This document shows positions 5,074 through 26,145 of a DNA stretch of 64,000 bases, one piece after another (position 1 is the stretch's first letter; the number at the start of each line of letters is the position of its first letter). The stretch is from a virus. The notes under the pieces were generated by a model. That model made no database searches, was not told the origin of the DNA, and saw nothing but the letters and a program-made list of their open reading frames with translations. Location of the stretch: the IMG/VR virus record IMGVR_UViG_3300029786_000322. The stretch is one strand, 5' to 3'. The position numbers and the translations under genes are program-made.

Positions 5074-5406
5074 ATGTCAAAGAAAAAAATATCAAAAAAG
5101 AAAAATGTATTAAAGGTGTTATGGAATGAGTGTATAACATTCAAGGTGTTAATTTTTATCATAGCATATGTAGTGCTTGCGTTTATTAATATGCCATTTG
5201 AAAAATGGCTCTCACTTTATTTCGAATGGGAAAAATTAAAGGATTATCAAGAAGTATTCATGGAGGAGATAACATTATTAGTAATTCTCCCTCTCATGGA
5301 GATAGCTGCTGTTGCATTAATTTGTTTTATTATCTATGAGTTTTTTTGCTCTGTCAGTAAGATGATTGCATCTGATGAAGTAATTTCGATTGAAAAGGAA
5401 GAATGA
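5074..5406 (+). CDS. truncated paralog of the array-linked membrane protein (N-terminal TM part only)
   Basis: MSKKKISKKKNVLKVLWNEC matches the N-terminus of 25498-26145. RBS ATAGGAGAAATAGTACATG. Confidence 0.55.
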   Translation: MSKKKISKKKNVLKVLWNECITFKVLIFIIAYVVLAFINMPFEKWLSLYFEWEKLKDYQEVFMEEITLLVILPLMEIAAVALICFIIYEFFCSVSKMIASDEVISIEKEE

Positions 5407-5901: not shown

Positions 5902-7725
5902 ATGATCAACGGAGAATTAGTTGTAGATAATTTTGCGGGCGGAGGAGGAGCTTCCACAGGAATTGAACTTGCTACCGGATACAGCGTAGACATAGCTATT
6001 AACCATGATCCGGAGGCCATTAAGATGCATAAAGTAAATCATCCCAATACAAAACACTATTGTGAAAACGTATGGGAGGTTGATCCAGTAAAAGCCTGCA
6101 AGGGGCACCCTGTCGGTCTTGCATGGTTTTCTCCGGACTGTAAGCATTTTTCCAAGGCCAAGGGGGGAAAACCGGTAGAAAAGAATATTCGCGGTCTTGC
6201 GTGGGTTGTGCTTAAATGGGCGGCACTTGTCAGACCAAGAGTTATCATGCTTGAAAATGTGGAAGAATTTCAGACATGGGGACCATGTATTCCTATCAGG
6301 GATAAAGATACAGGACGCGTTATTGTCAGCATGGTAGGAAGGCATGACAGAGAGAAGAACGAGCCGCGTACGAGGGTTGCAGATCCAGGAGAAGTTGTTC
6401 CTGTGGATCGCCAGATATTCCAACCAGATCCTAAAAGGAGCGGCCAGACATACAAAAAATGGAGAAAGCAGCTAGAAGCACTTGGATATGAGATAGATAC
6501 AAAGGAACTTGTAGCAGCTGATTATGGCGCACCTACTATGAGAAAGAGATTCTTTATGATTGCACGGTGTGATGGCAAGCCGATTGTCTGGCCGGAACCA
6601 ACACATGGACCGGCAGATAGTGAAGAGGTAAAGGCAGGACTGTTAAAACCATACGTTGGAGCGTATACGCAATTGGATTTTTCTCTTCCTTGCCCGAGCA
6701 TATTTGATACGGCAGAGGAAATCAAAAGGAAATATGGAATACGCGCTGTACGTCCATTGGCGCAGAAAACAATGGATCGAATCGCAAGAGGATTGAAAAA
6801 GTTCGTATTAGACAATCCGGAGCCGTTTATTATCCAATGCAATCATGGTGGAGAGCGTAGACAAAACGACATCAAAGAGCCTTTACCTACTATTACTGGA
6901 AAACACGGATATGGAATTGTGGAACCTAAGATTGTTCCATATATGGGAACCAATACAACAAATCATCCAGGTGGAAATTGTAAAAATCCTATACATACAA
7001 TTACAACAGGAAATCAACAGTGCCTTATCAGCCCAACGCTGATTCAGTATCATTCCGAAACATCGAAGGATGAAGTCAGAGGCCAATCGATTGAAGATCC
7101 GATAATGACCGTGGATGGTTCGAACCGATACGGATTGGTCACGTCGTTTCTACATAAATATTATGACGGAGGATACACTGGAGCTGGTGATACTGTCGAA
7201 AATCCGTTACCGACAGTAACATCCTGGGATCATAACAGTCTGTGTGCAGTTAATCTGATCCAAATGAATAATCATTGCGATGGAAGGGACGTGAAGGAGC
7301 CAATTCCAACAATCACAGCAGGCGATGGTCATTTCGGAGAGGTTAGAGCATTTCTGATCAAGTATTATGGTCAGGGAACTGGACAGGATGTTAAGGAACC
7401 TTTGGATACGGTTACATCAAGAGATCGATTTGGTTTAGTTACAATTAATGGTACCGACTATAAGATCGTGGATATCGGATTGAGGATGCTTGAACCGAAA
7501 GAACTGTATGGATGCCAGGGATTTCCAGATGATTACATCATAGACCGCGATTACACAGGGAAAAAATACCCAAGAAGCGAGCAGGTACGCAGGTGTGGAA
7601 ATGCTGTATGTCCTCCGATTCCGGCTGCTCTTGTAAAAGCAAATCTTCCGGAATTATGCGTAGCGAAACGCACTGGGAATATGAAAATTCGTGAGGAACA
7701 GACCGGGCAGCTTAGATTTGCATAA
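5902..7725 (+). CDS. DNA (cytosine-5)-methyltransferase, probably multispecific (five tandem target-recognition-like repeats)
   Basis: Motif I FAGGGGAS, PC motif SPDCKHFS, ENV motif MLENVEEF, motif VIII-like QTW. Five repeated blocks KEPLPTITG / EDPIMTVDG / ENPLPTVTS / KEPIPTITAG / KEPLDTVTS. The start is placed at MINGEL, which has an AAGGGG RBS. The track ORF extends to 5671, but the N-terminal extension looks non-coding. Confidence 0.8.
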   Translation: MINGELVVDNFAGGGGASTGIELATGYSVDIAINHDPEAIKMHKVNHPNTKHYCENVWEVDPVKACKGHPVGLAWFSPDCKHFSKAKGGKPVEKNIRGLAWVVLKWAALVRPRVIMLENVEEFQTWGPCIPIRDKDTGRVIVSMVGRHDREKNEPRTRVADPGEVVPVDRQIFQPDPKRSGQTYKKWRKQLEALGYEIDTKELVAADYGAPTMRKRFFMIARCDGKPIVWPEPTHGPADSEEVKAGLLKPYVGAYTQLDFSLPCPSIFDTAEEIKRKYGIRAVRPLAQKTMDRIARGLKKFVLDNPEPFIIQCNHGGERRQNDIKEPLPTITGKHGYGIVEPKIVPYMGTNTTNHPGGNCKNPIHTITTGNQQCLISPTLIQYHSETSKDEVRGQSIEDPIMTVDGSNRYGLVTSFLHKYYDGGYTGAGDTVENPLPTVTSWDHNSLCAVNLIQMNNHCDGRDVKEPIPTITAGDGHFGEVRAFLIKYYGQGTGQDVKEPLDTVTSRDRFGLVTINGTDYKIVDIGLRMLEPKELYGCQGFPDDYIIDRDYTGKKYPRSEQVRRCGNAVCPPIPAALVKANLPELCVAKRTGNMKIREEQTGQLRFA

Positions 7726-7865
7726 ATTGCATAAATTGCTATACTGTAAAAAGAAAATGTAAATATTGCTATCATTTGTATTTTTATAGACGTTCATATG
7801 CGCAATACATAATTCTTTTTGAAAAAGTAATGAGATGGTAACAAAGAAAAAAGGAGAGTGAAAGA

Positions 7866-8512: not shown

Positions 8513-8782
8513 ATGCATGAAATAGAAAACAAAATTTTAGAAGAATTGCTTGTTGCACCTTTGTGCATTGTTCAAGACCGGTATGGTGGATGTTATTCTG
8601 GAGCAGAATATCTGGCATTTAATATGGAACCGTATTTAGTAACAGAATTGGACGTAGATGCAGGTGATATGAGCTGTCGCGATTTTTGGGAATACGAAGC
8701 GAAAGAGTATATTATTGGAAAAGGAAATACTCCGTTAGAAGCACTATGCGATTTACAAATTAAATTAACTTCAAAGAAGTGA
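8513..8782 (+). CDS. hypothetical protein, 89 aa
   Basis: RBS AAAGGTGGTGATATAATTATG. Confidence 0.5.
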   Translation: MHEIENKILEELLVAPLCIVQDRYGGCYSGAEYLAFNMEPYLVTELDVDAGDMSCRDFWEYEAKEYIIGKGNTPLEALCDLQIKLTSKK

Positions 8783-8976
8783 TTGTGGCAGAAAGAACGG
8801 GTATAAAATGAAAAAGATTCCATGGCTTGTCTTATCTATCAATAACAGCAGAGTACCACTTCCATATGATGCTCCGCATGGGAGTGGTAGTTCATAAAAA
8901 AGCTTCCATCAATGCTTTTGAAAAGCTATAATTATAACGTGTTATGGTCAAGCTTATAATAAGGAGATGAATAAAT

Positions 8977-9194: not shown

Positions 9195-9539
9195 ATGGGA
9201 ACTATTAGAAACAGATTAACGATTGTGAATGATTACAATTTTGATAGAATTACCAACACAAGACAAAATGCGGTTGAATATTTTGGAAAAATCATGCGAG
9301 ATGAATTTGACTTTCCGGATTATGATGTGAACACACAGATGATAAGTCCTATTTTGCCAAGTGTAGTAAACGGCATATACACCTTTGTTATTATGGGAGA
9401 CTGCTCAAAAGACGGATGGGAATTATCTAACGATTTTAAAAAGTACAGAGACGAGTGGATTCGGAAAAATAAGGGTCTAAATATATTGGTTGCAGACTTT
9501 GGAGAGGGAGATGCAGAAGCATATATAAAAGAGTATTAA
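9195..9539 (+). CDS. hypothetical protein, 114 aa
   Basis: RBS GAAAGGAGATAAATATG. Begins 2 nt after the upstream stop. Confidence 0.55.
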   Translation: MGTIRNRLTIVNDYNFDRITNTRQNAVEYFGKIMRDEFDFPDYDVNTQMISPILPSVVNGIYTFVIMGDCSKDGWELSNDFKKYRDEWIRKNKGLNILVADFGEGDAEAYIKEY

Positions 9540-12479: not shown

Positions 12480-12590
12480 TTTGATCATGGCGAAACGATA
12501 CCAAAGAAAGTCCGGTTTGCAGTGTACGAAAAATGCAACCACCGGTGCAATTTTTACTTCGAAAAGATCGGACTGGATATGGCGTAAGTT
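12480..12590 (+). pseudogene. internally deleted remnant of an HNH endonuclease gene (compare 49753-50169)
   Basis: Encodes ...KKVRFAVYEKCNHRC|NFYFEKIGLD, i.e. the N- and C-terminal ends of the HNH protein fused, with the catalytic core missing. Confidence 0.4.
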
Positions 12591-12602
12591 TTCAAAAAAT
12601 CT

Positions 12603-12629
12603 TTGACGATTTTTCAAAAGGCGCAATAT
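12603..12629 (+). promoter_or_regulatory. conserved promoter-like element copy 4
   Basis: TTGACG-N11-GGCGCAATATGTATAGTG. Confidence 0.65.
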
Positions 12630-12636
12630 GTATAGT

Positions 12637-12780
12637 GTAAAGGTCATAAACCGAGCTGCCAGGGTTACCGGCTGGCAGAAAATCCTTTCGAAAAATGTTT
12701 ACGTTCCGGGAAATCCCCGGAAAGGATAGTGGGTACGCAGCGCAAGTTATTCCGGGTTCGACTCCCGGATATCCTTTTTC
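12637..12780 (+). ncRNA. structured leader RNA, copy 2
   Basis: Same three-hairpin architecture and T-loop-like terminal hairpin plus U-tract as copy 1. Closing stem AAAGGAUA/UAUCCUUU. Confidence 0.55.
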
Positions 12781-13950: not shown

Positions 13951-14002
13951 GAAAGAAGCCGTGGAATCCCGACTTTTCTGCTGCATTGTGTGTATATTTT
14001 AA

Positions 14003-14075
14003 CGCCGCCTGCGGGATTCGAACCCGCGGATAAAGAGTTCAAAGCTCCCTGCGTTAACCTTTTCGCCAAGGCGGA
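14003..14075 (-). tRNA. tRNA-Gln(TTG), provisional
   Basis: T-arm GCGGG-TTCGAAT-CCCGC, anticodon loop CTTTGAA, U1 as in Gln tRNAs. Acceptor pair 1-72 is mismatched. Confidence 0.5.
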
Positions 14076-14076
14076 G

Positions 14077-14144
14077 CACACCCGGAAGGACTCGAACCCT
14101 CGTTACCGGTTTTGGAGACCAGTTTCTGTCCATCAGACAGGTGC
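14077..14144 (-). tRNA. tRNA-Trp(CCA), provisional (short D-arm)
   Basis: Anticodon arm CTGGT-CTCCAAA-ACCGG identical to the canonical Trp arm. T-loop TTCGAGT. Acceptor GCACCTG/CGGGTGT has two G-U pairs. Confidence 0.5.
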
Positions 14145-14148
14145 ATAA

Positions 14149-14219
14149 CAGGCGATAATGGAATCGAACCATTGTTTTCTGAGTCAGAATCAGATGTCTT
14201 ACCATTGAACGAATCGCCC
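14149..14219 (-). tRNA. tRNA-Gln(CTG), provisional
   Basis: Anticodon arm TCTGA-TTCTGAC-TCAGA, T-arm AATGG-TTCGATT-CCATT. Confidence 0.55.
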
Positions 14220-14221
14220 AG

Positions 14222-14295
14222 TATCCCCAAAGGGACTCGAACCCTTAACCGACAGATTAGAAATCTGTTGCTCTTTCCAATTGAGCTATGGGGAT
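14222..14295 (-). tRNA. tRNA-Arg(TCT)
   Basis: Acceptor ATCCCCA/TGGGGAT, D-stem GCTC/GAGC, anticodon arm ACAGA-TTTCTAA-TCTGT, T-arm AAGGG-TTCGAGT-CCCTT. Confidence 0.7.
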
Positions 14296-14301
14296 ATATA
14301 G

Positions 14302-14391
14302 CGCAGACACCGGGGATCGAACCCGGACAGCGGGTGTGCCGCATGCCACATTAGCAGTGTGGAGGGGTACCATTTACCTTTATATGTCTGC
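14302..14391 (-). tRNA. class II tRNA-Ser(GCT), provisional
   Basis: 90 nt. Anticodon arm CCACA-CTGCTAA-TGTGG, long variable arm GCGG..CCGC, T-arm CCGGG-TTCGATC-CCCGG, acceptor GCAGACA/TGTCTGC. Confidence 0.55.
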
Positions 14392-14396
14392 ATAAG

Positions 14397-14468
14397 AGGC
14401 ATCGGAGGGGATCGAACCCTCGCCTTCCGGGTTGCAGCCGGACGCCTTCGCCGTTTGGCTACGATGCC
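14397..14468 (-). tRNA. tRNA-Cys(GCA)
   Basis: Acceptor GGCATCG/CGATGCC, anticodon arm TCCGG-CTGCAAC-CCGGA, T-arm GAGGG-TTCGATC-CCCTC. Confidence 0.7.
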
Positions 14469-14498
14469 ATATAATTCTTCCCGATAAGAGAAGATGAG

Positions 14499-14582
14499 CG
14501 CTGGGGCAGGGAGTCGAACCCTGATATCCTTTCGGAATGACGGTTTTCAGGACCGTTGCTTTACCAGTTGAGCCACCACAGC
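14499..14582 (-). tRNA. class II tRNA-Ser(TGA), provisional (C33, one acceptor mismatch)
   Basis: 84 nt. Anticodon arm ACGGT-CCTGAAA-ACCGT, variable arm TCC-GAAA-GGA, T-arm CAGGG-TTCGACT-CCCTG. Confidence 0.5.
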
Positions 14583-14827
14583 AAAAATAAAAGCATACAC
14601 CTCTCAATCGAAAGATGTATGCTTTGCAATTCCAGGTATTTCCAATATTCTCCCGGAAATTTCCCTACAATGACCACATTTCTTTCAATTTGAGACAATA
14701 TTTATTTGCACGACAACTACGCCAGATACATGACTGCGACTGACTCATACTTGCCTGTGAATATTGTCTCATTACTGCTGTAATCATTGATTTTCCCTTC
14801 CTTTCCTTGGTTTTCTTGAATATTTAG

Positions 14828-14901
14828 TGTGTCTGGTGGGACTTGAACCCGACGACCCCACGATTAAAAGTCGCGTGCTCTGCCAACTGAGCTACAGACA
14901 C
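14828..14901 (-). tRNA. tRNA-Lys(TTT)
   Basis: Acceptor GTGTCTG/CAGACAC, D-arm GCTC-AGTTGGCA-GAGC, anticodon arm CGCGA-CTTTTAA-TCGTG. The T-stem has a 1-nt bulge. Confidence 0.65.
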
Positions 14902-14906
14902 ATAAG

Positions 14907-14978
14907 CGGATCAGGAGGGAATCGAACCCTCATCTTCCGGTAGACAGCCGGATGTACTAGCCGCTATACTACAGATCC
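14907..14978 (-). tRNA. tRNA-Asp(GTC), provisional (U37, one acceptor U-U)
   Basis: Anticodon arm TCCGG-CTGTCTA-CCGGA, T-arm GAGGG-TTCGATT-CCCTC. Confidence 0.55.
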
Positions 14979-14982
14979 ATAA

Positions 14983-15055
14983 AGCTCCCGTCCGGCTTCG
15001 AACCGGAAACCTTCTGATTACAAGTCAGATGCACTACCAGTTGTGCTACAGGAGC
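14983..15055 (-). tRNA. tRNA-Thr(TGT)
   Basis: Acceptor GCTCCTG/CGGGAGC, D-stem GCAC/GTGC, anticodon arm TCTGA-CTTGTAA-TCAGA, T-arm TCCGG-TTCGAAG-CCGGA. Confidence 0.7.
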
Positions 15056-15139
15056 AGGAACACTTCCGACGGGTGCTGCCCCGCTATCTCCGCCGTGACA
15101 GGGCGGTGACTCTGTTGTTTGTCCTCGGAAGTAAATAAG

Positions 15140-15221
15140 TGCGCCGGGGAGGACTCGAACCTCCGGTGTTTCTTTGTGGCTGATTTACAGTCAGCTGCTG
15201 TCGCCTCTGAGCCACCGACGC
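15140..15221 (-). tRNA. class II tRNA-Tyr(GTA)
   Basis: Anticodon arm GCTGA-CTGTAAA-TCAGC, long variable arm, T-arm GGAGG-TTCGAGT-CCTCC, acceptor GCGTCGG/CCGGCGC. Confidence 0.7.
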
Positions 15222-15226
15222 ATAAG

Positions 15227-15298
15227 CTGGTCCGGAGGGTCTCGAACCCTCAACGCCCCGGTTAACAGCCGGGTGCTCTACCATTGAGCTACGGATCA
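15227..15298 (-). tRNA. tRNA-Asn(GTT)
   Basis: D-arm GCTC-AATGGTA-GAGC, anticodon arm CCCGG-CTGTTAA-CCGGG, T-arm GAGGG-TTCGAGA-CCCTC. One A-C acceptor mismatch. Confidence 0.65.
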
Positions 15299-15299
15299 G

Positions 15300-15371
15300 A
15301 GCATGTGACGGGTCTCGAACCCGCCCGTCCTGCTTGGAAGGCAGGTGTGCCGCCAACAACACTTCACATGC
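15300..15371 (-). tRNA. tRNA-Gly(TCC)
   Basis: Acceptor GCATGTG/CACATGC, anticodon arm CCTGC-CTTCCAA-GCAGG, T-arm GCGGG-TTCGAGA-CCCGT. Confidence 0.7.
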
Positions 15372-15436
15372 ATGCGGATAAAAGAAGTGCCTGTTTTCTC
15401 TTATCCATTCAGTTTTTTTACCGCATCGCTGCGGAG

Positions 15437-15508
15437 TGGACAGGAGTGGTAACGATCCACCCTGTAAGGATTTTCAGTCCTTCGCTAATCCATCTCAGCT
15501 ACCTGTCC
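15437..15508 (-). tRNA. tRNA-Phe(GAA) with an atypical T-loop (A54/U58 swapped)
   Basis: Perfect acceptor GGACAGG/CCTGTCC, D-arm GCTG-AGATGGAT-TAGC, anticodon arm AAGGA-CTGAAAA-TCCTT, T-arm GGTGG-ATCGTTA-CCACT. Confidence 0.55.
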
Positions 15509-16694: not shown

Positions 16695-16728
16695 ATTAAA
16701 AATATTTCAAAAAATTTCCCGGAAATTT

Positions 16729-16755
16729 TTGACGAAATTTCAAAAGGCGCAATAT
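16729..16755 (+). promoter_or_regulatory. conserved promoter-like element copy 5
   Basis: TTGACG-N11-GGCGCAATAT. Divergent from the minus-strand motif at 16674. Confidence 0.6.
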
Positions 16756-16783
16756 ATGTAATGAAAGGAGGAGGAAATACAAA

Positions 16784-17116
16784 TTGAAATGTTTGACATG
16801 CAAGAAACACTGGTCGCAGGGAGGCCGCTGTTCAGAGAACGTGAGAAACTGCCTGCATTATGAGGAAGAACCAAGAGGAAAAATGGTCCGCACAGAACTG
16901 TCTTTTCGTATGGATGCAGAGGCGGAAACTCCGGTGGTCAGATTTGGAGAGAAAATACTGGTTTCCGATGGTTCAAAAGCGGTCGAGATGACTGTGGTCA
17001 AGATCAACTGGGTTAATCTTCGGGATATGCTCTGCAATGTATCCGCGGATTATCATGAGAATGAGATGCCGCGATTTGAGAAAGAAAAGAAGTTCAAAGC
17101 ATTACATGGAAAATAG
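16784..17116 (+). CDS. hypothetical protein, 110 aa (TTG start)
   Basis: AAAGGAGGAGG RBS 9 nt upstream of the TTG. The stop codon abuts the first repeat of mini-array B. Confidence 0.5.
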   Translation: MKCLTCKKHWSQGGRCSENVRNCLHYEEEPRGKMVRTELSFRMDAEAETPVVRFGEKILVSDGSKAVEMTVVKINWVNLRDMLCNVSADYHENEMPRFEKEKKFKALHGK

Positions 17117-17222
17117 TTGCATTCCAGTGGAATGCATGGGGTGAAAGAAATAGGCAAATCGCATGACAATTTCTGAAATTAAATTGTTGCGCTCCCGTGG
17201 AGGGGGGCGTATGGATTGAAAT
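17116..17222 (+). CRISPR. mini CRISPR array B: 2 repeats, 1 spacer
   Basis: Repeats GTTGCATTCCAGTGGAATGCATGGGGTGAAA and GTTGCGCTCCCGTGGAGGGGGGCGTATGGATTGAAAT. Begins at the last base of the upstream stop codon. Confidence 0.55.
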
Positions 17223-17275
17223 GTGGAATCCTGTGATTGGCACATACTTGGGTGTAGTGCAGAAAAAGTGACCCA

Positions 17276-17551
17276 TTACAGATCACTTTCGATGAAAATT
17301 TGCTTTGCGATTTTTCCGATCACCCAATTTGGAATGTCGCTGCGGCATCCAGAATGGATTTCTCCGTTTTCAACAAAAAAGAATGCGGATTCTTCCGTTT
17401 TCATGCGGTCTAAAGCTTGCGCAGAAAAATATAAGGAATGGTGGAAGTCGCATCTTTGTGCCTCCTCATATGTATGGACTTCCTCTATTTTCCCATCGAT
17501 CAGGCTGACACAGCCGGACCAGAACTCTTTTCCTTCGAATATTGCTGCCAT
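17276..17551 (-). CDS. hypothetical protein, 91 aa
   Basis: AAGGAG RBS. Preceded on the minus strand by the conserved TTTCATATTGAAAGTGTAAAC motif. Confidence 0.55.
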   Translation of the reverse strand: MAAIFEGKEFWSGCVSLIDGKIEEVHTYEEAQRCDFHHSLYFSAQALDRMKTEESAFFFVENGEIHSGCRSDIPNWVIGKIAKQIFIESDL

Positions 17552-17576
17552 GTTTTGCTCCTTTCAAAATACTTTC

Positions 17577-17598
17577 GTTTACACTTTCAATATGAAAT
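17577..17598 (-). promoter_or_regulatory. conserved minus-strand upstream motif, copy 2
   Basis: GTTTACACTTTCAATATGAAAT. Confidence 0.45.
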
Positions 17599-17628
17599 GA
17601 AAATATTTCAAAACATTTCCAAAAACTT

Positions 17629-17655
17629 TTGACGATTTTTTAAATGGCGCAATAT
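17629..17655 (+). promoter_or_regulatory. conserved promoter-like element copy 6
   Basis: TTGACG-N11-GGCGCAATATGTATCATG. Confidence 0.65.
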
Positions 17656-17662
17656 GTATCAT

Positions 17663-17805
17663 GTAAAGGTCATAAACCGAGCTGCCAGGGTTATCGGCTG
17701 GCAGAAATCTTTTCGATATTTGTTTACACTCCGGGGAAACCCGGAAGGGGTAGTGAGGACGCAGCGTGTGCTGTTTCCGGGTTCGATTCCCGGGTATCCC
17801 TTTTG
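17663..17805 (+). ncRNA. structured leader RNA, copy 3
   Basis: Same architecture as copies 1 and 2. CCGGGUUCGAUUCCCGG T-loop-like hairpin plus U-tract. Closing stem AAGGGGUA/UAUCCCUUUU. Confidence 0.55.
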
Positions 17806-18020
17806 ACTGCCACATACGGTCTTCTCAAAATTCAGCCGTCTGCGGCCTGTGGAACTTTCCACTGGACCAAAATAACGATAACCGCCAGAATAACAGCAGC
17901 GTGCGTTGGCGTGAGAACTATCGGCGCACAGGGATTACTCCTTTCATATTTATCTATCAAACCTTTCCGTACATCGTATGGAAAGGTTATGGGACAGCAG
18001 GTGCATAGACATGAACTATT

Positions 18021-18050
18021 CCGGGATCGTTTCCCGGATGTTCCATTTTT
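18021..18050 (+). terminator. attenuator-like hairpin plus T-run in the long 5' UTR of the 18083 gene
   Basis: CCGGGATCGTTTCCCGG followed by ATGTTCCATTTTT. Confidence 0.4.
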
Positions 18051-18082
18051 AAAACATTAAAACAAATCATAGGAGGGAATTG

Positions 18083-18808
18083 ATGATGGAGAAAGAAGTA
18101 GTATATGTTGCAGAACTGGATTCCGATGTTGATGATGTCGTTGCGGCACATTACTTATTTAACGAGGGTGTGTTAAAGTGTGTAGTATGCGATCCATATC
18201 CAAGAACACCGGAGGGGTTGGCACGAAAGGGAAAGCTGGAAGCGCTTGGCATCGATGTGGTTAAGAAAATGCCACCGGTTGCAAAATATGTGTTTGTTGG
18301 CGGCGCTCTTACGGCTGTTGCTGGCTATATCCGGATGCACCATGTCGACTGGCTGGTAATGAACGGAGGCTTTGTTGGAGCAAATATTGCGACCTTTGAA
18401 CTGGATAAGTTCAAGGGGAAGAACACTGTCCGTACCTTCAATTTCAACTGCGATGTTGTGGCTGCAGATACGGTTTTGAAAACTGATGAGAAGCATATTT
18501 CTCATATTGTTCTTGTCGGAAAAAACGTCTGCCATGACGTCCGAAATACGAAAAATGGTCTCTGGAGTGGCGAGAAATACAAGAAATTGTTCGATGAGTA
18601 CCGGGTTAAGGATGAGAAGCGTCAACACGACTTGCTTGCCTGCCATGAGGGGCTTGCATTTCTGCGGGGAACCAATGCGATCTGTGAGTATGAGATGGTA
18701 AGACCATACAACACAGGCTTGAATGGCAAGCTGACGCAGTGGGGTAGCACAAAAACCATGGAAACACCATATCGCGAAGTGCTTGCTGCTGTTGGCTACC
18801 AGAATTAA
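18083..18808 (+). CDS. hypothetical protein, about 241 aa
   Basis: GGAGGG RBS. ATG at 18083; the track gives a TTG at 18080. Confidence 0.6.
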   Translation: MMEKEVVYVAELDSDVDDVVAAHYLFNEGVLKCVVCDPYPRTPEGLARKGKLEALGIDVVKKMPPVAKYVFVGGALTAVAGYIRMHHVDWLVMNGGFVGANIATFELDKFKGKNTVRTFNFNCDVVAADTVLKTDEKHISHIVLVGKNVCHDVRNTKNGLWSGEKYKKLFDEYRVKDEKRQHDLLACHEGLAFLRGTNAICEYEMVRPYNTGLNGKLTQWGSTKTMETPYREVLAAVGYQN

Positions 18809-18810
18809 AA

Positions 18811-18915
18811 GCTGCATCATGTGCGGGGGTGTATGGATTGAAATGTCGGAGTATGGTGTAAGAATCATATATATTCCTACGTTGTGCTCCTCCCGGTTGG
18901 TGCACGGGTTGAAAT
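18811..18915 (+). CRISPR. mini CRISPR array C: 2 repeats, 1 spacer
   Basis: GCTGCATCATGTGCGGGGGTGTATGGATTGAAAT, a 35-nt spacer, then GTTGTGCTCCTCCCGGTTGGTGCACGGGTTGAAAT. Starts 2 nt after the upstream stop codon. Confidence 0.55.
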
Positions 18916-19613
18916 ATAGTTCTAAAAATGGTTGGAAGACCTGTTTTTTGGTTACACCCATTGTCAGCTGTAAACCACAGTTAAGGCTTTCGGATGCGGT
19001 TAAAGTTTAAAAAGGCAACACCGCCAGATGGCTGTTCCTTTCGCGCCCTGAGATCAAGAAATCATTATGGGGCGGGCACTTACCAAATGAACTTGAAAGA
19101 AAGATCTACGTGGAATCCATGATCCACAGGACAAAGGATAATCCCATTGTCCTTTATGACTTTGATGACAGGTTTTACCAGTGCATGTACATGCTCCACT
19201 ATGCGTGAAGATGGCACAGTCGCTGAAAGACGGTTCTTAAAACTCCCGGCAGAATACGACTCTCTGCAACATAAGATCGATCATATCAAACGTGCACGGC
19301 ACCATGGTTCCAGACGTGTTTCAAACCTCTGGGCATATGCAGACGACGTCAATAAAGACATTGTTGTAAAAACAGCCCAGTTTGTTACGGATACTGCCGT
19401 GCTGCATGTTAACAGCATGCAGTTGCGGTGTTATCACTGTGTCCTCAGTCAGCGAGTCCATACGGGAAAACAGGTATGGAAGCACGCGAATTTAGTCATG
19501 TGAGACTTCACGGCCGGCCGCCGAAAGGACGTACACTACAAAAGCCTTTTGCACCTGACTTTTCTGTGGTATACTGAAAATATAAAAGATATTTCAAGGA
19601 GAAGGCAGAGAAA

Positions 19614-20486
19614 ATGAGAAAAAGTGTGAAAGATTTTGGAAATTTTGTAAGAAAAGACAATTACCCGGAGCTTCCAGAAGAATTGAAAGAATTTAACTAT
19701 TTTTTGAGTGATGGCGAGACGGGACATGTGATCATGGCTGTGCCTGAGCACACTTTGAATAAAGCAGAAGAAAATGTGGATGAACTGGATGATTACGAAT
19801 GTCCAGTTCCAGTGGCATATGTTCTTAAGAATGGCTATCGGCTGTATAAGAACCATGTAATATGCCAGGTTCCGTACGATGAGAAACTGGGGGTGCGTAT
19901 TCCGGAAGAATATTACGAACCGTCGATTATTTCTACAGATGCCGGGGAAGCAGAGAATCCGGTGTCCGGAGAGTTCCCTTATGAGAAAAGGAAATGCTAT
20001 CCAGAATTTGCAAACCATGCAGAAGCTGTAGTTGCGGATATCGTTAAGGATTACGTGCAGATCCGCGTATTTTTTAAAAATCCTACAGAAAACGAGATTG
20101 CACAGTTTTCTCCGGATGCCAGACTGAAAATTCGTTTTACGGAGATGGATGGAACCTGTCTGTTTACCGTTAAAGCTGGTGATTTGTCATGGATGGATGC
20201 ACCATACCATGCAAAACTTGCAAAAGATTTGTCTGGATTCGACTTTACAGGTGAAAGTGAGATTCCGTTATATCTCCTCCTGATCGACTCATCGAATGGT
20301 GAGGTCAAAGCGGTTCGAAATGTCCAGTTGTCAGAAGAGTTTTCCAGCAAATTGAGAAATCTGGTGGATCGTCAGGTCAACTCTGATTTTGATAAAAAGA
20401 AATATGCGGATATATTGTCCAACATTTATCTCCTTTTTTCATCGGATGAGCTGGCGGATGCCAGCACCATTAAGTGTCAGTGGTAG
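19614..20486 (+). CDS. hypothetical protein, 290 aa
   Basis: RBS GGAGAAGGCAGAGAAAATG. Confidence 0.65.
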   Translation: MRKSVKDFGNFVRKDNYPELPEELKEFNYFLSDGETGHVIMAVPEHTLNKAEENVDELDDYECPVPVAYVLKNGYRLYKNHVICQVPYDEKLGVRIPEEYYEPSIISTDAGEAENPVSGEFPYEKRKCYPEFANHAEAVVADIVKDYVQIRVFFKNPTENEIAQFSPDARLKIRFTEMDGTCLFTVKAGDLSWMDAPYHAKLAKDLSGFDFTGESEIPLYLLLIDSSNGEVKAVRNVQLSEEFSSKLRNLVDRQVNSDFDKKKYADILSNIYLLFSSDELADASTIKCQW

Positions 20487-20506
20487 GTAAGAAGATATAC
20501 TTTACT

Positions 20507-20724
20507 GTTGCGCCCCATTGGGTGCATGGGTTGAAATCTTTATGACCTTCTGAAAAGTGAGGGCATCTTAGTTGCACCCCCGCAAGGGATGTATGGGTTG
20601 AAATTCAATAGAAACAGATGCATTCGAAGGCGTTACAAGTTGCACCCCGCGAGGGGTGTATGGGTTGAAATTGCAGAAAGCTCAGGATTGGAAGGTTGCA
20701 TCCTATGGGATGCATGGATTGAAA
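20507..20724 (+). CRISPR. mini CRISPR array D: 4 repeats, 3 spacers
   Basis: Repeats at 20507-20537, 20571-20604, 20639-20671 and 20695-20724 with divergent stems. Spacer 2 (20605-20637) is near-identical to spacer 2 of array A. Starts 20 nt after the upstream stop. Confidence 0.7.
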
Positions 20725-20764
20725 CGAACATATTTGTTATTATTTATTATTGAGATCAGAAAGG

Positions 20765-20800
20765 TCTGCAGTCAGTTAATCTGGCTGCAGATTTTTTTTG
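20765..20800 (+). terminator. rho-independent terminator
   Basis: TCTGCAGTCAG-ttaat-CTGGCTGCAGA followed by T8. Confidence 0.7.
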
Positions 20801-20828
20801 CAATTTTTTAAAAATTTTCCAAAATCTT

Positions 20829-20855
20829 TTGACGATTTTTTAAAAGGCGCAATAT
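20829..20855 (+). promoter_or_regulatory. conserved promoter-like element copy 7
   Basis: TTGACG-N11-GGCGCAATAT. Its flank CCAAAATCTTTTGAC matches spacer 3 of the main array. Confidence 0.6.
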
Positions 20856-20863
20856 ACATATTG

Positions 20864-21085
20864 AAGGGATAAACAGGGGCTTACCGTTTGTTTCTTCAAT
20901 AAGAGTTTTTCTCTTATATGCCTCCTTAAGTTTCCTGCGCTGCATTTACAGCATTTTGGCAGCGCAGGGGGAATCCACAGGACTGCATTTGACGTTGTGT
21001 GGCGGCCTGCTCATCCGGTTCAACCCCGGAGGATTCCCTTACCGCTTATTTTTGCGGAGACAAAAATTTTAAAAAATATTCAAAA
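20864..21085 (+). ncRNA. candidate small structured RNA between promoter copies 7 and 8
   Basis: No ORF with an RBS. Several strong hairpins, including CCTGCGCTGC...GCAGCGCAGG, GGGAATCC...GGATTCCC and CCGC-ttattttt-GCGG. Confidence 0.35.
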
Positions 21086-21090
21086 ATTCT

Positions 21091-21117
21091 TTGACGATTT
21101 TTTAAAAGGCGCAATAT
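21091..21117 (+). promoter_or_regulatory. conserved promoter-like element copy 8 (cas operon promoter)
   Basis: TTGACG-N11-GGCGCAATAT, 95 nt upstream of cas5. Confidence 0.65.
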
Positions 21118-21170
21118 GTGTATTGAAGGAATAAACAGGGGCTTGCCGCTGTTGATTACCAGAGTTAAAA

Positions 21171-21200
21171 GTTGTGCCCCTATGGGGTGCATGGGTAATA
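21171..21200 (+). CRISPR. solitary degenerate CRISPR repeat in the cas5 5' UTR
   Basis: GTTGTGCCCCTATGGGGTGCATGGGTAATA has the repeat 5' end and hairpin but a degenerate 3' handle. Confidence 0.35.
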
Positions 21201-21210
21201 AGAGAAAGGA

Positions 21211-21885
21211 ATGGAAAAAGAAAAAATGGGAGTGAAACTAAAAGTCTGGGGAGATTACGCATTGTTCACCAGACCAGAACTGAAAACTGAACGGTATACA
21301 TACGATGTGATGACACCGTCGGCGGCTAGAGGAATTCTGGAATCTATCTACTGGCATCCGGGACTTCGGTGGTATGTAGACAAGATTCATGTATTAAATC
21401 CGATTGCCACTACGAGCGTGAGAAGAAATGAACTTCTCAGTAAGATACCAAAGTCAAATATGCTGCAGGCATACAACGGCGGGGATGTGAAACTGTATAA
21501 CTCGTCAAGAGACGATATTATCCAGAGGGCATCTGTTATTCTCCGGGATGTCTGCTATGTGATTGAGGCGCATTTTGAAATGACAGGGAAAGCGAGCCCA
21601 ACAGACAGCCCGGCAAAGTTTATAAGTATCTTTAACAACAGGGCAAGAAAAGGGGCATGTTATTCGATGCCGTATTTTGGTGTAAGGGAATTCCCGGCAC
21701 ACTTTGAACTCTGCGAAGGAGATGAAAAGATCCCATCCTACTATGAAGGACTTCCGGATAAAGATCTCGGGCTGATGCTTTATGATCTGGATTACTCCTG
21801 CGGTAGAGATATCCAGCCAATGTATTATCATGCGATTATGAAAAACGGCGTTATTGACGTTGGGAACAGTGAGGTGCTTCGATGA
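21211..21885 (+). CDS. cas5: Cas5 (type I-C Cas5d, crRNA-processing subunit)
   Basis: N-terminal LKVWGDYALFTRPE...SAARGILESIYWHPG is the Cas5d signature. The stop overlaps the cas8c start (ATGA). Confidence 0.9.
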   Translation: MEKEKMGVKLKVWGDYALFTRPELKTERYTYDVMTPSAARGILESIYWHPGLRWYVDKIHVLNPIATTSVRRNELLSKIPKSNMLQAYNGGDVKLYNSSRDDIIQRASVILRDVCYVIEAHFEMTGKASPTDSPAKFISIFNNRARKGACYSMPYFGVREFPAHFELCEGDEKIPSYYEGLPDKDLGLMLYDLDYSCGRDIQPMYYHAIMKNGVIDVGNSEVLR

Positions 21886-23621
21886 TCCTTCAGTCACTTG
21901 TGAAATTATATGAAACACTTGCGGATCAGGGAAAAGTGTCCCGTCCTGGCTGGTGTAATGCAAAGGTATCCTATGCGGTGGTTTTAAACCATGATGGGAC
22001 GATTAAAGATATTGTTTCCGTGAAACAGAAAGTGAAGAGAGGAAAGAAGACTGTTGAAATTCCAATAATTATGCAGGTTCCAGAGATGGTCACCCGCGCT
22101 AACAACATTGCCTCCAGCTTTCTCTGCGAAAATGCAAAGTATCTCTTTGGGATTGACGAAAAGATGAGTTTGCGTACACTGGAATGTTTTAAGGCGGCAA
22201 AGAAAAAACATCTTGATATTCTTGATGTTGTGGATTCACCTGTAGCACAGACGGTATGTAACTTTTTCCGTTCATGGGATCCGGAACAGGCGTTGGATCA
22301 ACCGGCTGTTGCAAAACTTGCAGAAGAGTTTTATAAAGGCGGAAACCTCGTTTTTGAAGTAGATGGGGAATATGTGCATGATAATGAAGAAGTCCGCAGG
22401 GCATGGATGGATTACAGCAGTGTACCATATGAAATGGTAACTGGAAGATGCCTTATTACTGGAGAGGAAGCGGAGATTGCCCGCACGCACGGGAAAATCA
22501 AAGGAGTTCCGGGAGCACAGTCATCTGGCGCGTCGCTTGTATCATTTAACGGAGCATCCCTTGAGTCTTATGAAAAAACACAGAGCTACAACGCGCCGAT
22601 TAGCACCTATGCGGCGTATGCATATGTGACCGCGCTGAATTACTTGCTTTCTACGGACGGGTATCACAGCAAGGTAGGAGATTCCATGGTGGTTTTCTGG
22701 ACAGATTCCGGGGATGTGGATGATGTGAGCAGACTGCGGAAGATGATGGGAAGCATCAATGAAAAGGATCACACCCCTACAGATACGGATGAAAAACTGT
22801 ACGTCCTCTGCCTTGCACCAAATGCCGGGCGAATTGCAGTCCGGTTCTTCTATGAGGATGCGATCGGGGTAATCTGGGAAAACCTGTCCGAACATGCCAG
22901 TCGGATGAAGATTGTAAAACCAGTATTTGAGGATCAAGAATTTATCAATATCTGGCAGATGCTCATGGAGACAGTCAACCAGAATCTTACAGATAAAACA
23001 CCTGTCCCGCATATGTCAGCAATGACGTTACAGTCAGTCATTTCGGATACACCGTATCCGCAGAGTCTGTATGCAGGTGTGTTATCTCGTATCCGCGCGG
23101 AGCACAAAGGTGTTACTTACAGAAAAGCATCGATTATTAAAGCTTTTTTAATAAAGAACTACAAATGGGAGGAAGGAAAAAATATGGAAGCATTAAATGA
23201 AGGCTGTAAGGATCGGGCATATATCCTTGGAAGACTGTTTGCGGTTATGGAAAAGGCACAGAAAGAAGCAGTTGGCAATATCAACCAGACAATTTGTGAT
23301 AAGTTTTACAATTCCGCGTGCACAACACCAAGATCGATCTTTCCAGTACTGATCAGGCTATCTAACAGTCATTTAAGTAAGTTGAAACGGACAAAACCGG
23401 GGAGAGGATATTATTTTACAGCTAAAATGCAGGATTTAATGGATAAAATTCCGGTAACAGATGATGATCCGGGATTCCCGCGGCGTTTCTCATATGAGGA
23501 TCAGGGTAAGTTTGCACTTGGTTATTATCATCAGATGCGGGCGGAATATACAAGCAGTAAGTTAAAAGATAATGATTCAGAAGGTGATCAGACAAATGCA
23601 GAGAATATGGAGGAAAACTAA
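21882..23621 (+). CDS. cas8c: Cas8c (Csd1), type I-C large subunit
   Basis: 579 aa. Its position between cas5 and cas7 and its size fit Csd1. N-terminal MILQSLVKLYETL. Confidence 0.85.
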   Translation: MILQSLVKLYETLADQGKVSRPGWCNAKVSYAVVLNHDGTIKDIVSVKQKVKRGKKTVEIPIIMQVPEMVTRANNIASSFLCENAKYLFGIDEKMSLRTLECFKAAKKKHLDILDVVDSPVAQTVCNFFRSWDPEQALDQPAVAKLAEEFYKGGNLVFEVDGEYVHDNEEVRRAWMDYSSVPYEMVTGRCLITGEEAEIARTHGKIKGVPGAQSSGASLVSFNGASLESYEKTQSYNAPISTYAAYAYVTALNYLLSTDGYHSKVGDSMVVFWTDSGDVDDVSRLRKMMGSINEKDHTPTDTDEKLYVLCLAPNAGRIAVRFFYEDAIGVIWENLSEHASRMKIVKPVFEDQEFINIWQMLMETVNQNLTDKTPVPHMSAMTLQSVISDTPYPQSLYAGVLSRIRAEHKGVTYRKASIIKAFLIKNYKWEEGKNMEALNEGCKDRAYILGRLFAVMEKAQKEAVGNINQTICDKFYNSACTTPRSIFPVLIRLSNSHLSKLKRTKPGRGYYFTAKMQDLMDKIPVTDDDPGFPRRFSYEDQGKFALGYYHQMRAEYTSSKLKDNDSEGDQTNAENMEEN

Positions 23622-23622
23622 G

Positions 23623-24534
23623 ATGAGCACACCAATTAAGAACAGATATGATTTCGTAGTATTATTCGACGTAGAGAATGGAAATCCGAACGGTGATCCG
23701 GATGCCGGAAATATGCCGAGAGTTGATCCAGAGACTGGCATCGGGCTTGTGACAGATGCCTGCATAAAGCGCAAGATCCGTAATTATGTGGAAACTGTAA
23801 AAGAAGATGCAGCCGGGTTCAAGATCTATATTAAAGAGGGGGTCCCGCTGAACCGGAGTGACCTTAAGGCAGTCGAAAGTCTTGGTATTGACGTCGGTGA
23901 CGACAAAAATGCACTTGAAGATGTAAAGAAGCTGAAAAAGACAGATGAAGATGTGGATCTTAAGCTCCGTGACTATATGTGTAGTAATTTCTATGATATC
24001 CGTACATTTGGTGCTGTCTTGACTACCTTTACAAAGGCGGCATTAAACTGTGGGCAGGTACGTGGCCCGGTACAGATTGGTTTTGCAAAAAGTATTGATC
24101 CTGTTTTCAGCCAGGATATTACTGTAACCAGAGTTGCAATCACAACGGAAAAGGATGCGGAAAAGAAAAATACAGAAATGGGAAGAAAGAGTATTATTCC
24201 TTATGGACTTTACCGTGTGGAGGGATATATTTCTGCTAATCTTGCCCGTAAGACCACCGGCTTTTCTGAAGACGATCTGGAACTGCTTTGGGAAGCAATC
24301 ATTAACATGTTTGAGAATGACCATTCCGCAGCACGCGGGAAGATGGCAGTGCGTGAGCTCATCGTATTCAAGCATAACAGCGAGCTTGGCAATTGTCCAT
24401 CGTACAAACTGTTTGAAACTGTTGATGTTAAGAAGAATGATGGTGTTGAGTTTCCTCGTAAATATTCCGATTATGCAGTGACTATTCATGAGGATGCGAT
24501 TCCGGATGGCGTGACAATGACTCGCAAAATCTAA
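23623..24534 (+). CDS. cas7: Cas7 (Csd2), type I-C backbone subunit
   Basis: Start at MSTPIKNRYDF with a GGAGGA RBS. DVENGNPNGDPDAGNMPR is the Csd2 signature. Confidence 0.9.
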   Translation: MSTPIKNRYDFVVLFDVENGNPNGDPDAGNMPRVDPETGIGLVTDACIKRKIRNYVETVKEDAAGFKIYIKEGVPLNRSDLKAVESLGIDVGDDKNALEDVKKLKKTDEDVDLKLRDYMCSNFYDIRTFGAVLTTFTKAALNCGQVRGPVQIGFAKSIDPVFSQDITVTRVAITTEKDAEKKNTEMGRKSIIPYGLYRVEGYISANLARKTTGFSEDDLELLWEAIINMFENDHSAARGKMAVRELIVFKHNSELGNCPSYKLFETVDVKKNDGVEFPRKYSDYAVTIHEDAIPDGVTMTRKI

Positions 24535-24784: not shown

Positions 24785-25482
24785 GCTACGCCCCATGGAG
24801 GGGCGTATGGATTGAAAATGATTGTTATTGTTTTTTATTCATGGAGAGGAAAGCTACGCCCCATGGAGGGGCGTATGGATTGAAAAGTAAGGTTTCGTCT
24901 CGAAGCCTTTATTCTGTTTTGCTACGCCCCATGGAGGGGCGTATGGATTGAAATACCAAAATCTTTTGACATTCTTATAAATGGTAACAGCTACGTCTTA
25001 TGGGGTACGTATGGATTGAAATCATAATAATTGTAGAGATCTCAATACAAAATAAAGCTGCGTCTCATGGAATACGTATGGATTGAAATGAAAAGGCGAG
25101 TTTGCGAAAGCAGATATTGGAATGTTGCGTCTCGTGGAGTACGTATGGATTGAAATTCCAACTTTAACTACATAACTATCCTGATAAACTTGCTGCACCC
25201 CATGGAGAGTGTATGGATTGAAATTTAAAAAATCATGGATAACATCTGCGATAAGACGTTGCACCTCGCTAGGGGTGTATGGGTTGAAATTTCCATAATC
25301 GGTAGCCAATTATTATCATTAGGTGTTGCACCCCATAGAGGGTGTATGGATTGAAATTATATAAAAATGATGAATATGTAAAAAAAATAAAAGAGTTACG
25401 CTCCATGGAGTGCGTATGGCTTGAAACCTCTTATTTTTTTAAAGATATCACAATTACGCCCAAAGTGGGCTTACGTAAATTT
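24785..25482 (+). CRISPR. main CRISPR array: 10 repeats of 33 nt plus a degenerate terminal repeat, spacers of 33-37 nt
   Basis: Repeats at 24785, 24853, 24921, 24990, 25057, 25124, 25192, 25258, 25325 and 25395. A degenerate eleventh sits at 25454-25482. The first three are identical (GCTACGCCCCATGGAGGGGCGTATGGATTGAAA). Later ones keep the GYTRC 5' end and TATGGATTGAAAT 3' handle but have different, internally complementary stems. Confidence 0.85.
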
Positions 25483-25497: not shown

Positions 25498-26145
25498 ATG
25501 TCAAAAACAAAAGGAATATCAAAAAAGAAAGATATATTAAAGGTATTTTGGAATGAGTGTGCAGTATTTAAGGTAGTTGTTTGTATTCTTGCGTATGTGA
25601 TACTCGGCTTTATCAATATACCAATTAACAGGTGGCTTACATTTCATGTACCTAAATGGTCAGATGGGAAACTACATGATATAACAGGATCATTTTTTGT
25701 TCTTCCTATCCTTGAAGTATTAGCGGTCACTTTAATTTATCTTATCGCTAATGGATGCTTTTATTTCATCAGCAAGATGATCGCGTACAGGAATTACTGT
25801 TACATTCCGCTTACGGAAGATGAAATTAAAGGAAAGAAATTTAAGAATGCAAATGAGTATTTTTCCTATGTCCTCAATGTCCTTTCCTATGGTTTTAAGA
25901 ATGAAAAAGAAAATCTCCAGGTTAGTGATGATGATCTTCGAGAAATGCTTATAACTTGTCTGATTGTATTCCCTGATAATGGGACAATATTTCAGATAAA
26001 ACCAGAAACTGCGTGGAATGTTTCAGACGACATCCTTTTCTCCGAAGCCGTTGAATTGAATTGCGGAAAAGCAGAAATAATTGATAAGCATGTTGTATTG
26101 TCTGGTGATAATAGAAACGGCAAAAGAGAAGAATATACAGTGTGA
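25498..26145 (+). CDS. membrane protein with two N-terminal TM helices, array-linked paralog family (copy 2)
   Basis: Paralog of 4152-4799. RBS AAAGGAGAAAAGTACATG. Starts 16 nt after the terminal degenerate repeat. Confidence 0.7.
   Translation: MSKTKGISKKKDILKVFWNECAVFKVVVCILAYVILGFINIPINRWLTFHVPKWSDGKLHDITGSFFVLPILEVLAVTLIYLIANGCFYFISKMIAYRNYCYIPLTEDEIKGKKFKNANEYFSYVLNVLSYGFKNEKENLQVSDDDLREMLITCLIVFPDNGTIFQIKPETAWNVSDDILFSEAVELNCGKAEIIDKHVVLSGDNRNGKREEYTV

Follow-up and report, generated by a model that had tools for sequence, protein, structure and literature searches.

CRISPR repeats kept next to three stop codons in a phage carrying its own type I-C Cascade genes

The 64,000-nucleotide (nt) stretch of viral DNA analyzed here, called the window in what follows (IMG/VR record IMGVR_UViG_3300029786_000322), is phage DNA with a strong plus-strand gene bias. 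It contains a type I-C CRISPR operon, cas5d-cas8c-cas7, and, 0.5-4 kb upstream of it, three satellite arrays of repeats, B, C and D, each lying immediately behind the stop codon of an open reading frame (ORF110, ORF242 and ORF290, respectively). It is directly observed that this anatomy is conserved in position among related phages, that the repeat hairpin covaries, that the spacers of B, C and D are fixed among closely related strains and that Cas5d is encoded by the phage. The reading that fits these observations best, which we hold with moderate confidence, is that B, C and D are promoterless type I-C fragments in the 3' ends of three transcription units and are processed by Cas5d. The positional conservation of repeats whose content varies is a new observation.

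Results

Three satellite arrays abut the stop codons of upstream genes

At the junction of ORF110 and array B the offset is 0, as the stop codon TAG occupies 17114-17116 and its G doubles as the first base of repeat B1. ORF242 ends with TAA (18806-18808), which is separated by 2 nt from C1, starting at 18811, and ORF290 ends with TAG (20484-20486), 20 nt ahead of D1, which starts at 20507. The gaps between genes and repeats are tight on the 5' side only, and array B runs up against a convergent gene. The chance of three such offsets, under random placement in the intergenic gaps, can be roughly estimated post hoc as (1/54)(3/233)(21/53), i.e., ~1e-4.

An earlier note on this DNA had reported these three offsets and the lack of any promoter belonging to the arrays themselves. 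The coordinates are exact, and no copy of the phage promoter motif described below (11 in all) falls between an ORF and its array, the gaps at B and C being too small; a leader precedes the first repeat of array E, whereas B, C and D have neither leader nor promoter. The same note had listed seven mini-arrays, lettered A to H, and a solitary repeat, all on the plus strand. The strand is right for all 27 repeat units of the window; the lettering is not, as the arrays number seven and run from A to G, with one solitary repeat in addition, and E is a main array of 10 repeats. Array A has four repeats, which corrects the first reading. The motif found at the repeat 3' end, GYRYATGGRTTGAAA, has 25 matches, vs. 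2.9 expected. The repeats of B, C and D are non-identical within each array, and their spacers range from 39 nt to 24 nt (Table 1), vs. 33-36 nt for canonical ones; some spacers, in D (24 nt) and in G (~27 nt), are unusually short.

The position of the repeat is conserved and its content varies

Two sets of related sequences were compared. The strain set is composed of ten contigs that encode the very same Cas8c and match the window at more than 99% identity. The lineage set belongs to the same 90% Cas8c cluster, with 34-71 substitutions, and its flanking genes have 82-88% nucleotide identity (12-18% diverged). No Cas8c relatives were found between 52% and 88% identity, and the comparison is therefore confined to one phage group plus L054, a related phage.

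In all related loci compared, a repeat is present within 0-20 nt of the stop codon, at 20 of 20 loci for ORF110, 21 of 21 for ORF242 and 23 of 23 for ORF290, which represent 4, 4 and 5 junction haplotypes, respectively. No lineage compared has lost the repeat at the B, C or D site. At the B site of diverged lineages (...GAAAATAGTTGTACC...), TAG again overlaps the repeat, the handle is perfect and the stem is rebuilt by compensatory changes; the solitary repeat found there is ~62% identical between lineages, vs. 87% for the adjacent ORF, and its hairpin is kept. At the C site of these lineages, TAA is followed by 2 nt and a degenerate repeat, and at the D site a gap of 8 nt separates TAG from a repeat whose stem is intact and whose handle is degenerate, the same terminator as in the window coming next. 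Spacer content differs between lineages. As the repeat follows the same three stop codons in all lineages, often singly, the conserved element is the repeat hairpin at the gene end, and not the guide.

In the ten strains, the spacers of B, C and D are invariant. Array E differs between strains by one or two extra leader-end spacers, each with an identical new repeat (24785-24953 vs. L021, L022 and L030 12904-13142). Array E thus gains spacers and the satellites are frozen, since there are leader-end additions in E and no change in B, C and D. The Cas1, Cas2 and Cas4 needed for this acquisition are presumably provided in trans, either from the host or from a part of the phage genome beyond the window. 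The strains differ at about 35 variable sites in 4.5 kb, which are too few to test selection on spacers.

The repeat hairpin covaries and a full-length Cas5d is present

Each repeat unit is a 7-8 bp hairpin with the handle directly after it, i.e., a type I-C repeat of ~32-33 nt with a GC-rich stem and a handle ending in ATTGAAA(C/T). When 37 distinct units from the phage group are aligned, 91.5% of the stem cells are paired and double-sided changes are found in 7 of the 8 stem pairs. None of 500 shuffles gives such a high pairing, and shifted registers are 32-65% paired. Both array B hairpins fold. The repeat of a Roseburia type I-C array (GTCGCTCCCCTTGTGGGAGCGTGGATTGAAAT) is composed of a hairpin and the 11-nt handle TGG(A/G)TTGAAAT, the same as in the phage repeats. 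None of the 80 spacers of this Roseburia array matches the phage.

In type I-C systems, Cas5d cleaves the repeat where the hairpin stem ends on its 3' side, which leaves an 11-nt 5' handle on the CRISPR RNA (crRNA); cleavage of such repeats by Cas5d was reportedly described in 2012, by Nam and by Garside (references 78 and 79 of PMC10651486). The Cas5d protein of the phage is full length and close to the solved pre-crRNA endonuclease of D. vulgaris (E=2e-65 to 8DEX). The cas operon starts 0.5 kb from array D, and Pfam scans of ~50 ORFs, which cover the window only, give no match to cas3, cas1, cas2 or cas4.

The solitary repeat-like hairpin of the window lies in the 5' untranslated region (UTR) of cas5. 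Its handle is degenerate, ATGG(G/A)TAAT(A/G)AG; the hairpin recurs with a different, compensated stem in L031 (~9297-9330) and L032, and it is also found in L054 (2141-2172), where it is the terminal repeat of an array, even though Cas8c is only 37% identical. Because this hairpin, placed before the cas5 ribosome-binding site, is kept across lineages and in L054, its conservation suggests a feedback of Cas5d or Cascade on cas5 messenger RNA (mRNA).

Promoters and terminators of the three units

A phage promoter motif, TTGAC-N12-G(G/A)CGCAATAT (TTGAC-N12-GRCGCAATAT), is present in 11 exact copies, all on the plus strand, vs. 0.31 expected (starts at 1040, 3654, 9816, 12603, 16729, 17629, 20829, 21091, 44099, 48510 and 57412). 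This promoter-like motif is sharply defined and of a phage-specific class, with an invariant GGCGCAATAT unlike a plain sigma-70 -10 element. The copies at 16729, 17629, 20829 and 21091 precede genes, and a sigma-70-like promoter with a counterpart in L031 is placed upstream of ORF290 (Table 1). A weak sigma-70-like match (GTGTCA-16-TATACT, 20474-20501, 9/12) lies before D, inside the end of ORF290; it is of chance frequency and absent from L031 and L032. A generic sigma-70 scan is uninformative, with 22 matches vs. 22.5 expected. As B, C and D are leaderless and promoterless, read-through from the upstream gene is their only evident expression route.

An intrinsic terminator, kept in L031, closes the unit made of ORF290 and array D, and no terminator is detected between the stop codon and the next promoter at the B and C sites of L031 and L032. 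The repeats differ from intrinsic terminators, as the hairpin is followed by ATGGRTTGAAA, with no U-tract. An Rfam scan of 16700-21300 detects nothing except a chance microRNA match on the terminator.

The cas promoter is duplicated, 262 nt apart (20829-21090). Its first copy precedes a GC-rich stretch of ~200 nt devoid of any plus-strand ORF of at least 60 amino acids; in L031 and L032 the cas promoter is single and this stretch is absent. Elsewhere, the promoter and a leader of ~100 nt are found together in three copies, 69-81% identical (1004-1153, 12567-12716 and 17593-17742). The leader copies hold two perfect hairpins, CTGCCAG...CTGGCAG and CCGGG-GAAA-CCCGG, and downstream of the leader, at 17776-17794, is a sequence resembling a transfer RNA (tRNA) T-arm, GGTTCGATTCCCGG. 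An ORF of 138 amino acids that overlaps the leader (17644-18060) may not be a real gene.

Spacers and their targets

The satellite spacers have no protospacer in any of the collections searched. When 32 spacers are matched approximately to the window and six related loci, and when the concatenated satellite spacers are compared with INPHARED by BLAST, no match is returned. The same holds for exact scans of IMG/VR with D2/A1, D1, C1 and a recent spacer of array E, and of GTDB genomes with D2/A1; a scan of JGI metagenomes with D2/A1 gives 22 matches, all of them in arrays, and no protospacer. Partial targets, defined as a TTC motif with a seed of at least 9 nt, occur at chance level only in the window, the related loci and one Roseburia cas locus, i.e., in 64 kb of a ~280-kb genome and one candidate host locus.

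In array E, spacer three (24954-24988, TACCAAAATCTTTTGACATTCTTATAAATGGTAAC) is similar to the phage promoter motif in its upstream half, and 24 of 34 bases match the promoter copies at 17618 and 20818. It may target the promoters of a related phage or act as an internal promoter.

Recombination and duplication among the arrays

The satellites are linked to each other by recombination and duplication. Spacer A1 is identical to spacer D2 except for two differences (3856-3890 vs. 20604-20638; the spacer begins with TTCAATAGAAACAGATGCATTCG), and D2 is found in L054 (1973-2007) with 35 of 35 bases identical despite a very different type I-C module. In L021 (~8756-8842), two D units were lost by recombination between repeats. 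In L034 (13164-13255), the end of array E is joined to G and the downstream genes are different. In L052 (reverse complement 6686-6856), arrays E and A are contiguous.

L054 has a 3' end 92% identical to L032 and L037 and a distinct type I-C module, with Cas8c 37% and Cas5d 51% identical and the order cas7, leader, array, cas5, cas8c. Its repeat is one base from A1 and G1. Its array, of six repeats, is in the position of array D, directly abuts cas5 and contains spacer D2; the last repeat of this array, which is degenerate (...ATGGGTAATAAGA), borders on the ribosome-binding site of cas5. As this array spans the same position, array D and the cas5 5' UTR hairpin resemble opposite ends of one ancestral array beside cas5, which would later have been split by the terminator and promoters.

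Array A and the gene that follows it, for a protein of 215 amino acids (4152-4799), are paralogous to the end of array E and its own gene (25498-26145); array and gene were duplicated as one module. These paralogues have no Pfam match, and their N-terminal half contains two hydrophobic stretches that are transmembrane-like by eye. A third copy, limited to the N-terminal part, is found at 5074-5406.

The genes upstream of the satellites and the phage

ORF110 has no Pfam, PHROG or PDB sequence match, and its AlphaFold model (predicted local distance difference test score, pLDDT, 66.8; all-beta) has no Foldseek match at E<0.001. Its homologues in small phages lie near Lar anti-restriction genes and lack the repeat. 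A known anti-CRISPR (Acr) was considered for ORF110 and rejected, as no Acr-like family or fold match is found. ORF242 is annotated as a 240-amino-acid gene in related contigs. N-terminal homologues of ORF290 are found in 160-kb IMG/VR phages, without repeats and without the promoter motif.

No near match to the window is present in INPHARED, and no close relatives were found in IMG/VR or INPHARED. In public assemblies, 1584 indexed blocks contain its exact Cas8c protein. Ten contigs retrieved with this protein are scaffolds from human-gut metagenomes, 200-332 kb long; among the source contigs retrieved via Cas8c variants, the 16 that exceed 100 kb measure 125-332 kb. The nearest non-phage Cas8c proteins, from Roseburia and Eubacterium, are ~50% identical.

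Several other features of the window were noted. The segments between B and C (17222-18810) and between C and D (18915-20506) are nearly equal in length, 1589 vs. 1592 nt, without sequence similarity; this is probably a coincidence, because the B-to-C length differs in other lineages. Thirteen tRNA genes form a single minus-strand cluster (14002-15508), nearly all protein-coding genes being on the opposite strand. An ORF of 509 amino acids (57486-59015), directly behind the promoter motif at 57412, has weak matches to OrfB_IS605 and to a Cas12f-like TNB domain (TnpB or Cas12-like). A C5-cytosine methylase gene has a second, apparently fragmented copy (6505-6886 and 7559-7728 vs. 61373-61755 and 62503-62672), which shares 99% identity with the intact one over its final 170 nt, and array G begins ~110 nt past the stop-equivalent position of the C5-cytosine methylase copy.

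Table 1. Arrays, genes and transcription signals of the window (positions in nt)
Feature	Position	Strand	Description
Satellite array A	3759-3991	+	4 repeats (3759, 3824, 3891, 3961); preceded by a promoter motif of its own (phage type, 3654-3680)
Phage promoter motif (TTGAC-N12-GGCGCAATAT)	16729-16755	+	Unit of ORF110 and array B
ORF110	16784-17116	+	110 amino acids, N-terminal cysteine-rich motif; gene of array B
Satellite array B	17116-17221	+	B1 17116-17146, spacer 17147-17185 (39 nt), B2 17186-17221
Phage promoter motif	17629-17655	+	Unit ending in array C
ORF242	18080-18808	+	Weak PF01156 match (nucleoside-hydrolase-like; E=8.5e-6, below curated cut-off); gene of array C
Satellite array C	18811-18914	+	C1 18811-18843, spacer 18844-18880 (37 nt), C2 18881-18914
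Sigma-70-like promoter, TG-extended -10	19548-19575	+	TTTGCA-16-TATACT; upstream of ORF290; counterpart in L031
ORF290	19614-20486	+	PHROG 12389, function unknown; gene of array D
Satellite array D	20507-20724	+	Repeats 20507-20536, 20571-20603, 20639-20670, 20695-20724; spacers 34, 35, 24 nt
Intrinsic terminator	20758-20798	+	18-bp stem and T8; closes unit of ORF290 and array D; kept in L031
Phage promoter motif, cas operon	21091-21117	+	Second copy at 20829-20855
Solitary repeat-like hairpin	21172-21201	+	Degenerate handle ATGGGTAATAAG; cas5 5' UTR, just before ribosome-binding site
cas5d	21211-21885	+	PF09704, 2.5e-38
cas8c	21882-23621	+	PF09709, 3e-165
cas7	23623-24534	+	PF05107, 1e-107
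Main array E	24785-25426	+	10 repeats behind a 250-nt leader, downstream of cas7
Satellite array F	45944-46042	+	2 repeats; second with degenerate handle, abutting ribosome-binding site of next gene (ATG 46066)
Satellite array G	62781-62871	+	2 repeats, then terminator-like hairpin with T-run at ~62906-62936 (by eye only)

Discussion

Our results point to three satellite arrays that would be expressed as the tails of the genes they follow. B, C and D are very probably co-transcribed with their upstream genes, each by read-through from the promoter of the preceding gene. The read-through transcripts are likely cut at the repeats, given a phage Cas5d of full length that closely resembles pre-crRNA endonucleases of solved structure: this enzyme, and possibly that of the host, would act at the 3' base of each repeat hairpin, with cut sites predicted at ~17136/17137, 18833/18834 and 20526/20527. 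Where at least two repeats flank a spacer, we infer that fixed, non-updating crRNAs would be released and loaded into the phage Cascade, no Cas3 being found in the window. The same cut would leave the upstream mRNA ending in a repeat hairpin. In this reading, the stop-adjacent repeat is the part that is conserved, the spacers being gained and lost by recombination between repeats.

In the earlier note, the satellites were proposed to be 3' extensions of mRNAs, in which Cas5d cleavage would both release crRNAs and define the mRNA 3' ends; crRNA processing might then have been co-opted to process or stabilize transcripts, or guides might be delivered from polycistronic RNAs. The anatomy and the precedent discussed below give good support to the co-transcription part of this proposal. 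The shaping of mRNA ends is not supported, and it is unlikely that shaping or stabilizing these ends is the selected function. Only ~4 genes in 64 kb bear 3' repeats, so that mRNA-end processing is not a genome-wide strategy; moreover, the C repeats are decaying, and recombination leaves a solitary repeat behind without any need for selection. Polycistronic guide delivery is weakened, because a single repeat yields no crRNA and B, C and D are each a single repeat in L031 and L032. These single repeats and the small number of genes concerned also weigh against the processing of guide-bearing gene tails that we favor, as do the lack of protospacers, the stems of C1 and C2, which are partly degraded (the L031 C-site stem is weak too), and the fact that a ribosome terminating at B or C would be expected to cover the 5' arm of the hairpin, so that translation and cleavage would compete.

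The satellites could alternatively be neutral debris. An ancestral array beside cas5 would have been broken by gene insertions and by recombination between repeats, with one repeat always left, and genome compaction would press genes against the repeats, which may be transcribed and even cut without selection. The rearrangements seen in L021 (loss in D), L034 (E-G fusion) and L052 (E-A fusion) are direct evidence of such recombination, and L054 has a full six-repeat array abutting cas5 in the D position and shares spacer D2; the decay of the C-site repeats and the variation of spacer content between lineages also fit debris. What speaks against this credible explanation, to which we give a rather low probability, is the B site, where a perfect handle and an intact, compensated stem are found in a solitary repeat that has diverged far more than the adjacent ORF (~62 vs. 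87% identity). The maintenance of this hairpin by compensation while its sequence turns over suggests constraint, as do the retention of the repeat at all three sites in every lineage compared and the gaps, tight on the 5' side only. A more far-reaching reading is that Cas5d would be a general RNA-processing enzyme, the hairpins of B, C, D and G being 3'-end or insulating signals in place of terminators (in L031 and L032, none is detected between the B- or C-site repeat and the next promoter), those in the 5' UTRs of cas5 and of the gene after array F allowing Cascade proteins to feed back on the translation of their own mRNA, and the guides being a by-product. We regard this broader role as distinctly improbable.

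Two other explanations give the repeats a function in trans. The satellites could encode regulatory guides of the CreR/Cracr kind, fixed and with divergent pseudo-repeats, which would direct a nuclease-less Cascade to repress promoters of the host or of the phage, with a timing set by the different promoters that drive the guides. Phage arrays of such RNAs have been described (bioRxiv 10.1101/2024.10.29.618823), and the lack of cas3, cas1, cas2 and cas4 in ~50 ORFs, the fixed satellite spacers, the short ones in D (24 nt) and G (~27 nt) and the non-identical repeats would all be in agreement with them, as would the presence of one spacer in two arrays of the window and, 100% identical, in a phage whose Cas8c is 37% identical. 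The search for targets with TTC and a seed of at least 9 nt has however given nothing beyond chance in the window (64 kb of ~280 kb), the related loci and one Roseburia cas locus, and single-repeat lineages have no guide at all, so that we give regulatory guides a low probability. Lower still is that of RNA anti-CRISPR (Racr)-like decoys, in which repeats, as tails of anti-defense transcripts, would soak up the Cas5d, Cas7 or Cas8c of the type I-C system of the host or of a competing related phage. The architecture is like that of acrIC5-racrIC1 and the repeats are solitary in several lineages; their handle is identical to that of a Lachnospiraceae type I-C repeat, A1 and G1 are of the native repeat type of the different type I-C module of L054, and the ORF110 homologues of small phages are located near Lar genes. 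Yet the phage Cascade uses the same repeats and would be poisoned too, the satellites are within 5 kb of cas genes, unlike described Racrs, the ORF110 homologues of other phages carry no repeat, ORF110 has no Acr-like fold or family match, and an attempt to assign the host with the 80 Roseburia spacers gave no phage match.

If the stop-codon repeats are processing sites, they would be a natural counterpart of the operon cutting engineered with CRISPR endoribonucleases and would give Cas5d a post-transcriptional role. If they are decoys or regulators, the biology of Racrs and Cracrs would extend to phages with their own Cas proteins, and if they are debris, they would be a record of how array fragmentation seeds solitary repeats, which is relevant to the origin of Racrs. 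As this giant phage is very common in the human gut, judging by the Cas8c counts and the large contigs, it is well suited as a natural example of a virus running a nuclease-less type I-C Cascade, with guide genes scattered in many places.

Compared with a type I-C array in the usual sense, the phage has the repeat hairpin and handle and the adjacent cas5d, cas8c and cas7, and it lacks cas3, cas1, cas2 and cas4 as far as the window goes; in B, C and D, leader and leader-end spacer gain are both missing, the repeats are not identical and the spacers are not consistently of 33-36 nt. The closest precedent for the junctions is RacrIC1, a solitary type I-C repeat located 11 nt after acrIC5 and carried on one bicistronic RNA with it in a Bifidobacterium pseudocatenulatum prophage (Camara-Wilpert et al., 2023; PMC10651486). 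In both cases a type I-C repeat lies a few nt past the stop codon of a small phage gene, without its own promoter. RacrIC1 is however one repeat only; its prophage has no cas genes, and it inhibits the type I-C system of the host, whereas the phage studied here has three such junctions plus others, several of them with spacers, and its own Cascade 0.5-4 kb away. Nor are its repeats solitary and away from cas genes, as those of Racrs are: B, C and D have 2-4 repeats, and in L031 and L032, where they are solitary, they are still beside cas genes.

Virus-borne CRISPR mini-arrays and solitary repeat units, with repeats matching type I systems, are known (PMC11656645), and our phage shares with them the presence, in a viral genome, of single repeats and of arrays with one or two spacers. 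Those described usually have a leader or promoter, rely on host Cas proteins and contain spacers matching related viruses; here there is no leader, Cas5d, Cas8c and Cas7 are the phage's own, and no target is found. CreR/CreA and viral Cracr arrays, with divergent pseudo-repeats and fixed spacers, sometimes multiplexed and phage-carried (bioRxiv 10.1101/2024.10.29.618823), owe their definition to a partial match between spacer and cas or toxin promoter, and no target of this kind is found here. The passages of Al-Shayeb et al. (2020; PMC7162821) considered here describe a type I-C variant of huge phages without Cas1, Cas2 and Cas3, which likewise combines Cas5d-type processing and Cascade genes with the lack of adaptation genes and Cas3 (in our case, in the window); these passages mention no satellite arrays abutting stop codons, which are present here. 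Phage mini-arrays and solitary repeats are thus already known, and what differs in the present phage is that they coexist with its own Cascade, at several gene ends, and that their position is kept while their content varies.

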